64,000 nucleotides of DNA from Escherichia coli (GTDB lineage: Bacteria; Pseudomonadota; Gammaproteobacteria; Enterobacterales; Enterobacteriaceae), in assembly GCF_002854065.1 (NCBI RefSeq), contig NZ_CP024147.1. One strand, written 5' to 3'. How positions within the stretch are numbered: the stretch's first letter is position 1; each line of letters starts with the position of its first letter. This document shows positions 34,290-37,085 of this stretch, piece after piece. The notes under the pieces are model-generated. The model was not told the origin of the DNA and did no database searches. It worked only from the letters and a program-made list of their open reading frames with translations. A program made the translations under genes and the position numbers.

Positions 34290-36260
34290 ATGACTCATCA
34301 AACACACACCATTGCTGAATCCAATAACTTTATCGTTCTTGATAAGTACATCAAAGCTGAGCCAACAGGCGACAGCTATCAGAGCGAATCGGACCTGGAA
34401 CGGGAACTGATTCAGGACCTGCGAAATCAGGGTTATGAATTTATATCCGTAAAATCTCAGTCAGCGATGCTGGCCAACGTTCGGGAACAGCTTCAGAACC
34501 TCAATGGTGTGGTGTTTAATGACAGCGAGTGGCGGCGTTTCACGGAGCAGTTTCTGGATAATCCGAGCGATGGCATCCTGGATAAAACCCGTAAAATTCA
34601 TATCGACTACATCTGCGACTTTATTTTTGACGACGGGCGTCTTGAGAACATCTATTTGATAGATAAAAAGAATCTCATGCGCAATAAGGTGCAGATTATC
34701 CAGCAGTTTGAACAGACGGGTTCTCATGCTAACCGTTATGACGTCACGATCCTGGTTAATGGCTTGCCTCTGGTGCAAATCGAACTGAAAAAACGCGGCG
34801 TGGCGATTCGTGAGGCTTTCAACCAGATACATCGTTACAGTAAAGAGAGTTTTAACAGCGAAAATTCCCTGTTTAAGTATCTGCAACTGTTTGTCATTTC
34901 TAACGGCACCGATACCCGTTATTTTGCCAACACAACAAAGCGCGATAAAAACAGTTTTGACTTCACCATGAACTGGGCGAAATCAGACAACACGCTGATT
35001 AAAGACCTCAAAGATTTTACCGCTACCTTTTTCCAGAAACATACTCTGCTTAATGTTCTGGTGAACTACAGCGTTTTTGACAGCAGTCAGACGCTACTGG
35101 TGATGCGACCGTACCAGATTGCTGCCACCGAGCGCATTCTGTGGAAAATTAAGAGCTCCTTTACAGCGAAGAACTGGTCAAAACCGGAAAGCGGTGGGTA
35201 TATCTGGCACACTACCGGTTCTGGTAAAACCCTCACCAGCTTTAAAGCCGCGCGTCTGGCAACAGAGCTGGACTTTATTGATAAAGTCTTCTTCGTGGTC
35301 GACAGGAAAGACCTCGATTACCAGACCATGAAGGAATATCAGCGTTTTTCGCCAGACAGCGTCAACGGCTCGGAAAATACCGCAGGCCTTAAACGAAATC
35401 TGGATAAGGACGATAACAAAATTATCGTCACTACTATTCAGAAACTCAATAACCTGATGAAAGCAGAAAGCGACCTGCCTGTATATAATCAGCAAGTGGT
35501 GTTTATATTTGATGAATGCCACCGCAGCCAGTTTGGAGAAGCGCAGAAAAACCTGAAGAAGAAATTCAAACGCTATTATCAGTTTGGTTTTACCGGCACC
35601 CCTATTTTCCCGGAAAACGCCTTAGGCTCAGAAACAACCGCCAGCGTATTTGGTCGTGAATTGCATTCGTATGTAATTACCGATGCGATTCGTGACGAAA
35701 AAGTGCTCAAATTCAAGGTGGACTACAACGATGTGCGGCCACAGTTTAAGTCTTTAGAGACAGAAACTGACGAGAAAAAACTGAGTGCGGCTGAAAATCA
35801 GCAGGCGTTTCTTCATCCCATGCGTATTCAGGAAATCACGCAATATATTCTGAATAATTTCCGCCAGAAAACCCACCGTACCTTCCCTGGCTCAAAAGGT
35901 TTTAATGCTATGTTGGCAGTGAGCAGCGTGGATGCTGCAAAAGCCTATTACGCGACGTTTAAACGGTTACAAGAGGAAGCAGCTAATAAATCGGCCACCT
36001 ATAAACCGCTGCATATTGCGACAATCTTCTCCTTTGCCGCTAATGAAGAACAAAATGCCATTGGTGAAATTTCCGATGAAACTTTTGATACCAGCGCAAT
36101 GGACAGCAGTGCTAAAGAGTTTCTTGACGCTGCAATTCGTGAGTATAACAGCTATTTTAAAACTAACTTCAGCACCGACGGTAACGGTTTTCAGAACTAC
36201 TATCGTGATTTAGCCCAACGGGTTAAAAATCAGGATATCGATCTGTTAATTGTCGTTGGG
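34290..36260 (+). pseudogene. hsdR: hsdR restriction subunit, 3'-truncated by IS1 (about 657 of ~1038 codons retained)
   Basis: N-terminal nuclease and helicase motifs (TGSGKT, DECH) present; frame runs directly into the IS1 inverted repeat at 36261 after ...DIDLLIVVG. Confidence 0.85.
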
Positions 36261-36275
36261 GGTAGTGACTCCAAC

Positions 36276-36779
36276 TTACTGATAGTGTTTTATGTTCAGA
36301 TAATGCCCGATGACCTTGTCATGCAGCTCCACCGATTTTGAGAACGACAGCGACTTCCGTCCCAGCCTTGCCAGATGTTGTCTCAGATTCAGATTATGTC
36401 GCTCAATGCGCTGAGTGTAACGCTTGCTGATTACGTGCAGCTTTCCCTTCAGGCGGGATTCATACAGCGGCCAGCCATCCGTCATCCATATCACCACGTC
36501 AAAGGGTGACAGCAGGCTCATAAGACGCCCCAGCGTCGCCATAGTGCGTTCACCGAATACGTGCGCAACAACCGTCTTCCGGAGCCTGTCATACGCGTAA
36601 AACAGCCAGCGCTGGCGCGATTTAGCCCCGACATAGCCCCACTGTTCGTCCATTTCCGCGCAGACGATGACGTCACTGCCCGGCTGTATGCGCGAGGTTA
36701 CCGACTGCGGCCTGAGTTTTTTAAGTGACGTAAAATCGTGTTGAGGCCAACGCCCATAATGCGTGCACTGGCGCGACAT
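36276..36779 (-). CDS. insB: IS1 InsB (expressed as InsAB fusion by frameshift)
   Basis: 167 aa ORF overlapping insA. Confidence 0.85.
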
Positions 36780-36973
36780 CCGACGCCATTCATGGCCATA
36801 TCAATGATTTTCTGGTGCGTACCGGGCTGAGAGGCGGTGTAAGTGAACTGTAGTTGCCATGTTTTACGGCAATGAGAGCAGAGATAGCGCTGATGTCCGG
36901 CAGTGCTTTTGCCGTTACGCACCACCCCGTCAGTAGCTGAACAGGAGGGACAGCTGATAGAAACAGAAGCCAC
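36698..36973 (-). CDS. insA: IS1 InsA
   Basis: 91 aa [40 protein letters not shown]. Confidence 0.9.
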
Positions 36974-37085
36974 TGGAGCACCTCAAAAACACCATCATAC
37001 ACTAAATCAGTAAGTTGGCAGCATCACCCAGTTAAGCGTATTATTGGTGCAGAGCCCGGGCGTACCGGGCTCCGTTTTGAGGGGG

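Follow-up and report, generated by a model that had tools for sequence, protein, structure and literature searches.

The window analysed here, a 64-kb stretch of DNA, carries a Type I restriction-modification cluster in which hsdM and hsdS are followed by an hsdR that runs into an IS1 element. An initial annotation, made from the sequence alone, had read this as a likely remnant capable of methylation only. The features on which the analysis was based are listed in Table 1.

Table 1. Features of the hsd locus and its surroundings. Positions are those of the window; for protein domains, residues of HsdR are given.
Feature	Position	Strand	Description
ileX tRNA	21824-21899		Island end
hsdM	31416..32972	+	Type IC methyltransferase subunit; 518 aa, intact (ORF map)
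hsdS	32969..34168	+	Specificity subunit; 399 aa, intact
hsdS-hsdR intergenic region	34169..34289	+	121 bp; 0-1 nucleotide differences vs L007 and L005
hsdR ORF as read	34290..36341	+	683-aa product (ORF map)
hsdR', retained native part	34290..36260	+	657 codons; nuclease, RecA-like domain 1, most of RecA-like domain 2
Deletion junction	36260..36261		hsdR side ...ATTGTCGTTGGG; IS1 side GGTAGTGACTCC; ancestral continuation ATGTTTTTAACCGGCTTCGATGCTCCA (MFLTGFDAP)
IS1-derived codons fused in frame to hsdR'	36261..36341	+	26 codons, then TGA 36339-36341 (translation)
IS1 copy 1	36261..37028	-	768 bp, apparently intact; no target-site duplication
insB' of IS1 copy 1	36276-36779	-	167 aa
insA of IS1 copy 1	36698-36973	-	91 aa
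Right flank	37029..37499	-	57 bp + pgaD (37086-37499), island-borne pga operon
Tyrosine integrase	60056-61372		Other island end; adjoins nfeF, nfeR, aer
HSDR_N	residues 30-219		Pfam on intact relative's HsdR
SWI2_SNF2	residues 275-499		Pfam on intact relative's HsdR
T1R_D3-like (RecA-like domain 2)	residues 536-707		Pfam on intact relative's HsdR
EcoR124_C	residues 728-1031		Pfam on intact relative's HsdR

Family assignment and predicted specificity of the hsd cluster

As shown in Table 1, both hsdM and hsdS are intact, as the initial annotation had stated, and the stop codon of the first overlaps the start codon of the second as ATGA at 32969-32972 (sequence ...CAGAAATGAGCGAG). The window HsdM was matched over its full length by residues 3-520 of EcoR124 HsdM (7BST_D; 1154 bits), and the retained part of HsdR was colinear with residues 1-657 of EcoR124I HsdR (PDB 2W00, 1038 aa) at ~99% identity (1447 bits). 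The N-terminal, central and C-terminal conserved regions of HsdS also aligned to EcoR124 HsdS, and the central one contains two TAEL repeats (TAELTAEL, residues 190-197). PADLOC called the three subunits MTase_I (HsdM), Specificity_I (HsdS) and REase_I (HsdR). Identity of HsdR and HsdM to the EcoR124 subunits, the order hsdM-hsdS-hsdR with hsdR set apart from hsdS by 121 bp, and a TAEL-bearing, two-domain HsdS were thus all found as in members of this family. Because HsdR 1-657 is ~99% identical to EcoR124, HsdM matches it over the full length and HsdS matches it in the conserved regions, we class the locus by sequence as a Type IC (EcoR124-family) hsdM-hsdS-hsdR cluster, with an uncharacterised specificity. 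The earlier Type IC label, now resting on matches of all three subunits to EcoR124, is retained.

Both target-recognition domains of HsdS are unlike those of EcoR124 HsdS, the sole Type IC HsdS with a solved structure. Because both domains differ in this way, the target is predicted to differ from GAAN6RTCG, and from the two TAEL repeats it is predicted to be bipartite with an N6 spacer; the corresponding m6A motif would be expected to have half-sites of 3-4 bp and 4-5 bp on either side of N6. The hsdS gene was 100% identical in nucleotide sequence to that of three other assemblies (L005, L006 and L007), in each of which it is followed by a gene for a 1038-aa HsdR. The identical hsdS is carried by, among others, the assemblies GCA_013076865.1 and GCA_029443895.1.

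The exact window HsdM protein was found in 566 contigs, and it showed no amino-acid difference from the copies of L001, L005 and L007, all of which lie beside an intact hsdR. The region upstream of hsdM differed from that of strain 571 at 3 positions in 290 bp. Two alleles of this region (window 31151-31440), ~87% identical to each other, were observed among the relatives; one is shared by the window and strain 571, the other is carried by L005, L007 and strain CUWW10, and hsdM itself is nearly identical across the carriers of both. This contrast between the upstream region and hsdM points to recombination at or close to the promoter. The hsdR gene of Type IC systems is transcribed from a promoter of its own within the gap between hsdS and hsdR, a gap that is nearly unchanged here in comparison with L005 and L007 (Table 1).

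Extent of the hsdR truncation

The initial annotation had hsdR ending at 36261 after about 657 codons, with the C-terminal third lost. We found exactly 657 native codons, so that this count held, but the open reading frame does not stop at the element: it reads a further 26 codons into IS1, which gives the product of 683 aa. Alignment to EcoR124-family hsdR, which had been proposed as the way to measure the loss, was run and showed residues 658-1038 to be missing, and the lost third could be refined to 381 of 1038 residues (36.7%). The retained part encodes a nuclease domain of the PD-(D/E)XK type. When compared with L005, the closest copy with the same hsdS, it differed by 21 nucleotides and 1 amino acid, with no frameshift or stop codon.

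Placed on the Pfam domains of an intact relative's HsdR, a break after residue 657 means that the T1R_D3-like region is shortened by its final 50 residues and that EcoR124_C is missing altogether. The lost sequence opens MFLTGFDAP...QAFSRTNR; by SF2 helicase consensus, we take MFLTGFDAP (658-666) to be helicase motif V and QAFSRTNR (684-691) to be motif VI. The exact 683-aa product was found in a single contig among ~15 billion proteins. Being truncated after residue 657, the window HsdR does not have the make-up of a complete restriction subunit. By descent the locus is a member of the EcoR124 family, but it does not encode a complete restriction enzyme.

IS1-associated deletion of the 3' part of hsdR

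Among 5,426 complete E. coli genomes compared with the window by megablast, 15 (strain 571 and 14 others) had the same arrangement with ~1.3 kb of extra DNA and an intact hsdR. Strain 571 (L001) has, in succession, hsdM, hsdS, hsdR (1038 aa), 145 bp, IS1 and pgaD. The window aligns to this locus through L001 position 11267 and then again from 12559, the first base of IS1. The 1,291 bp in between (L001 11268-12558), consisting of the last 1,146 bp of hsdR and the 145-bp spacer, are missing from the window and are kept in L001, L010, L011, L012 and L013, the pattern that defines an adjacent deletion. Neither blastn nor tblastn detected a remnant of the hsdR 3' part in any portion of the 64-kb window, and a simple insertion or a local inversion is therefore excluded. 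An hsdR junction at the window's position was found in none of the 5,426 complete genomes.

The ancestral state is seen in those relatives whose hsdR is intact, and the stretch of 1,291 bp that is gone from the window reaches exactly to the IS1 end; these results argue for an IS1-mediated deletion, and the window reads as a textbook case of one. The truncation is recent and specific to the source strain. The initial annotation had likewise proposed an IS1-mediated deletion or rearrangement, and this part stands; it had also supposed that whatever lay between hsdR and pgaD was removed, which has to be given up, as the relatives have just 145 bp and the same IS1 there, and nothing substantial was lost from this interval.

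IS1 copy 1 was examined as an element in its own right. It has imperfect terminal inverted repeats (judged against ~23 bp) and the A6C frameshift motif, as a member of IS1 does, and its counterparts in relatives are annotated as IS1A/IS1B family. The earlier observation that it lacks a target-site duplication was confirmed: with 8-9 bp expected, none was found at IS1 copy 1, whose flanks read gtcgttggg and cagttaagc. Adjacent deletions and IS-IS recombination are standard causes of absent target-site duplications (PMC11708052). The right flank beside IS1, cagttaagcgtattattggt, was identical in the window, L001, L010, L011 and L012. Since the IS1-pgaD junction is common to the 15 genomes with intact hsdR, it is older than the deletion, and two or more distinct events must lie behind the missing duplication.

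In the ancestor, IS1 lay 145 bp 3' of the hsdR stop codon. The deletion starts from the left end of IS1 and extends 1,291 bp leftwards, so that the spacer and 1,146 bp from the 3' end of hsdR are gone and IS1 and the right-hand pgaD are unaffected. The likeliest route would be intramolecular replicative transposition by IS1, that is, an adjacent deletion; an equivalent one would be insertion of a second IS1 into hsdR, followed by IS1-IS1 recombination. In the latter, two-step route, a second IS1 in the same orientation would have inserted after codon 657, and homologous recombination would have removed one IS1 together with the 1,291 bp.

The two-step route was weighed by comparing IS1 copy 1 with the elements that occupy this site in relatives. 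It differed from those of L012 and L001 at 10-11 positions. At IS1 positions 19, 55 and 108, the window has C, C and T, while L001, L002, L011 and L012 have T, T and G; the same C, C and T are present in IS1 copy 2 of the window and in the IS1 abutting hsdR on plasmid p573-4. These three sites, in the leftmost 108 bp, fit a crossover between 108 and about 230, and an IS1 insertion nearly at this place is possible, as an independent IS1/hsdR junction lies 13 bp off on p573-4. However, the three sites could just as well be due to gene conversion. Even relatives with both flanks the same have a mosaic IS1 here: the L010 element, with differences at 38 of 768 sites, already has C and T at 55 and 108. 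IS1 copy 1 also carries a private 7-site patch at 504-522, and both routes leave identical junctions. We therefore regard the two-step route as conceivable but somewhat doubtful, and a one-step adjacent deletion is kept as the working account.

A second IS1 in the window, copy 2 (43942-44709), has an 8-9 bp target-site duplication, (c)tgtcatcg, and interrupts an ISKpn26/IS5-like element (43750-45718) between pgaA and the GGDEF gene. The two window copies differ at 38 of 768 positions.

With IS1 in multiple copies, two of them 95% identical within the window, a mis-join across IS1 repeats during assembly could in principle have produced the junction from an hsdR that is really intact. This is very improbable, as unique hsdR sequence is joined to base 1 of the terminal repeat of IS1, for which a real IS1 end at codon 657 would be needed. 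Moreover, the right flank of IS1 is the same in 15 independent complete genomes, and the source is a single 4.64-Mb contig.

Behaviour of the resident IS1 and a second IS1/hsdR junction

In the relatives, the resident IS1 (L001 12559, L002 12592, L013 about 12263) lies 145 bp after hsdR, and its right-hand neighbour varies by genome, with at least three kinds observed: pgaD, other DNA of the island and a truncated fdeC. No target-site duplication was present at this IS1 in any of the compared genomes, and its sequence is heavily mosaic among relatives (10-38 differences). The comparison indicates that the resident IS1 downstream of hsdR is a rearrangement hot spot, subject to repeated IS1-mediated rearrangement and gene conversion.

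A comparable junction was seen on p573-4 (L004, NZ_CP102857.1), a P1-like plasmid on which IS5 and IS1 have truncated the two ends of an EcoR124-like hsdR at 5444-7905. The junction with IS1, in the same orientation as that of the window and 13 bp upstream of it, could be either an independent event or the mark of an IS1 hot spot, and is the one mildly unusual point of the comparison. Because two independent junctions of the same orientation lie 13 bp apart on unrelated replicons (the chromosome and p573-4), the motif-V region of EcoR124-family hsdR might be a recurrent IS1 target, with the resident IS1 serving as a switch to the restriction-minus, modification-plus state under selection. We consider this unlikely; if true, such a switch could permit DNA uptake with self-methylation kept.

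The island and its pga operon

The hsd locus lies on a ~40-kb island at the ileX tRNA, beside mug and rpoD (window 21824-61372). The island also holds DUF4942, cbtA/cbeA, a RadC-like JAB gene, an antirestriction gene (25341-25826), DUF932, Ag43 (27063-29984) and a GTPase gene, in addition to hsdMSR, IS1, pga, IS elements, yfjI-like genes and the integrase.

The island pgaDCBA operon together with a GGDEF gene (45824-47191) spans window 37086-47191. Its nucleotide identity to native E. coli pga is 83-86%, and that of the GGDEF gene to dgcT is ~80%. Strain 571 carries both, with the native dgcT-pgaABCD-phoH elsewhere in addition to the island copy. By these comparisons, the pga operon next to IS1 is a divergent, island-borne second copy and not the native locus. 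The cluster of this PgaA variant has 276 members, and every named member that was read is from E. coli.

A plasmid origin of the island pga was considered and rejected: the matches in a plasmid collection were all at ~83%, most of them with native pga genes and phoH, and some lay on records of 1.3-4.9 Mb. The island variant was not found on true plasmids in that collection. An IS1-mediated chromosomal inversion was also considered as the cause of the missing duplication, prompted by the position of rpoD-mug-ileX beside pga, which are ~2 Mb apart in K-12. It was ruled out, as strain 571 has its native pga elsewhere and the IS1-adjacent pga is the divergent island copy (83-86%).

Predicted restriction and modification phenotype

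The 683-aa protein keeps the nuclease domain and RecA-like domain 1. Without motifs V and VI and the proposed docking domain, it is predicted to be unable to translocate DNA or to join M2S1 in a complex, and the intact HsdM and HsdS should form M2S1 and methylate the bipartite target. The C-terminal helical domain of HsdR is the proposed methyltransferase-docking domain and is needed for ATPase, translocation and cleavage (PMC2602864; PMC5248579), and M2S1 without HsdR is an active methyltransferase (PMC12707154). Motifs V-VI and EcoR124_C are lost, and the HsdM and HsdS proteins do not differ from those encoded next to an intact HsdR. For this specificity, the favoured prediction is therefore a restriction-minus, modification-plus state. 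With hsdM and hsdS both intact, the locus also has the gene content looked for in a solitary Type I methyltransferase and is a candidate r- m+ remnant.

Restriction might nevertheless be retained if the window M2S1 assembled with another HsdR of the EcoR124 family, supplied by a plasmid or by a gene elsewhere in the chromosome. Subunits are interchangeable within a Type I family, and it is by such exchange that these families are delimited (PMC12707154). The 3' part of family IC hsdR was found in 1,305 of the 5,426 complete E. coli genomes (~24%), at 854 chromosomal and 618 plasmid places (~40% plasmid), with up to 4 per genome. However, the median is 1 copy per genome having any. An intact hsdR elsewhere had been named in the initial annotation as the finding that would speak against its reading; none was found in the 64-kb window, which the search covered. 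We judge retained restriction to be an unlikely outcome.

It could also be that the whole system is inactive, showing neither restriction nor modification, either because hsdMS is silent or because the truncated HsdR interferes. The island does carry a gene annotated in relatives as encoding an antirestriction protein (25341-25826). But HsdM and HsdS are free of lesions and identical to widespread alleles, the region upstream of hsdM agrees with strain 571, and interference is unlikely because the truncated HsdR is without the proposed docking domain. Complete inactivity thus seems rather improbable.

Taken together, these results are best explained by an EcoR124-family hsdR deleted by IS1, with restriction lost and methylation kept, a reading to which we give a probability of about 80%. 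The source strain is accordingly predicted to lack one barrier to foreign DNA and to show an additional bipartite m6A motif. The practical value of this is limited; it would help in interpreting methylome data and in deciding whether to use the strain as a host for transformation or phage. The biology is routine, being IS-mediated decay of the restriction subunit in a well-known family, and it raises no new question on restriction-modification. The locus also provides a clean natural example of an IS1-associated deletion, fully reconstructed from its ancestral state and endpoints to the protein domains affected.

Comparison with known systems

The closest characterised systems are EcoR124I and EcoR124II (plasmid R124; PDB 2W00, 7BST). 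The window locus resembles them in HsdR 1-657 (~99% identical), in an HsdM that is near-identical over its full length, in HsdS conserved regions that are identical including the two TAEL repeats, and in the gene order hsdM-hsdS-hsdR. It is unlike them in being chromosomal and island-borne instead of plasmid-borne, in its target-recognition domains and in the absence of HsdR residues 658-1038.

Intact sister loci were found in strain 571 (NZ_CP183117.1), strain CUWW10 (NZ_CP182145.1), DABIJA010000073.1 and DAOCMJ010000062.1. All share the ileX island and the same HsdM protein with the window, and the hsdS of DABIJA010000073.1 and DAOCMJ010000062.1 is identical to that of the window. The same IS1 is present 145 bp past hsdR in strains 571 and CUWW10, and the IS1-pgaD junction of the window is also present in 571. 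Unlike the window, the sister loci retain the 1,291 bp and encode a 1038-aa HsdR.

The deletion itself is like the adjacent deletions mediated by IS1, IS10, IS903 and IS150: it stops right at the IS boundary, the flank on the far side of the IS is intact, and a target-site duplication is absent (PMC11708052). At 1.3 kb it is small, and nothing about it is unusual. In its predicted outcome, the locus is like laboratory and natural hsdR-defective r- m+ strains, for example the hosts used for EcoR124I complementation, in which the restriction subunit is lost and M2S1 is intact (PMC2602864). It differs from them in that its state would have arisen naturally through IS1 and its phenotype is a predicted one.
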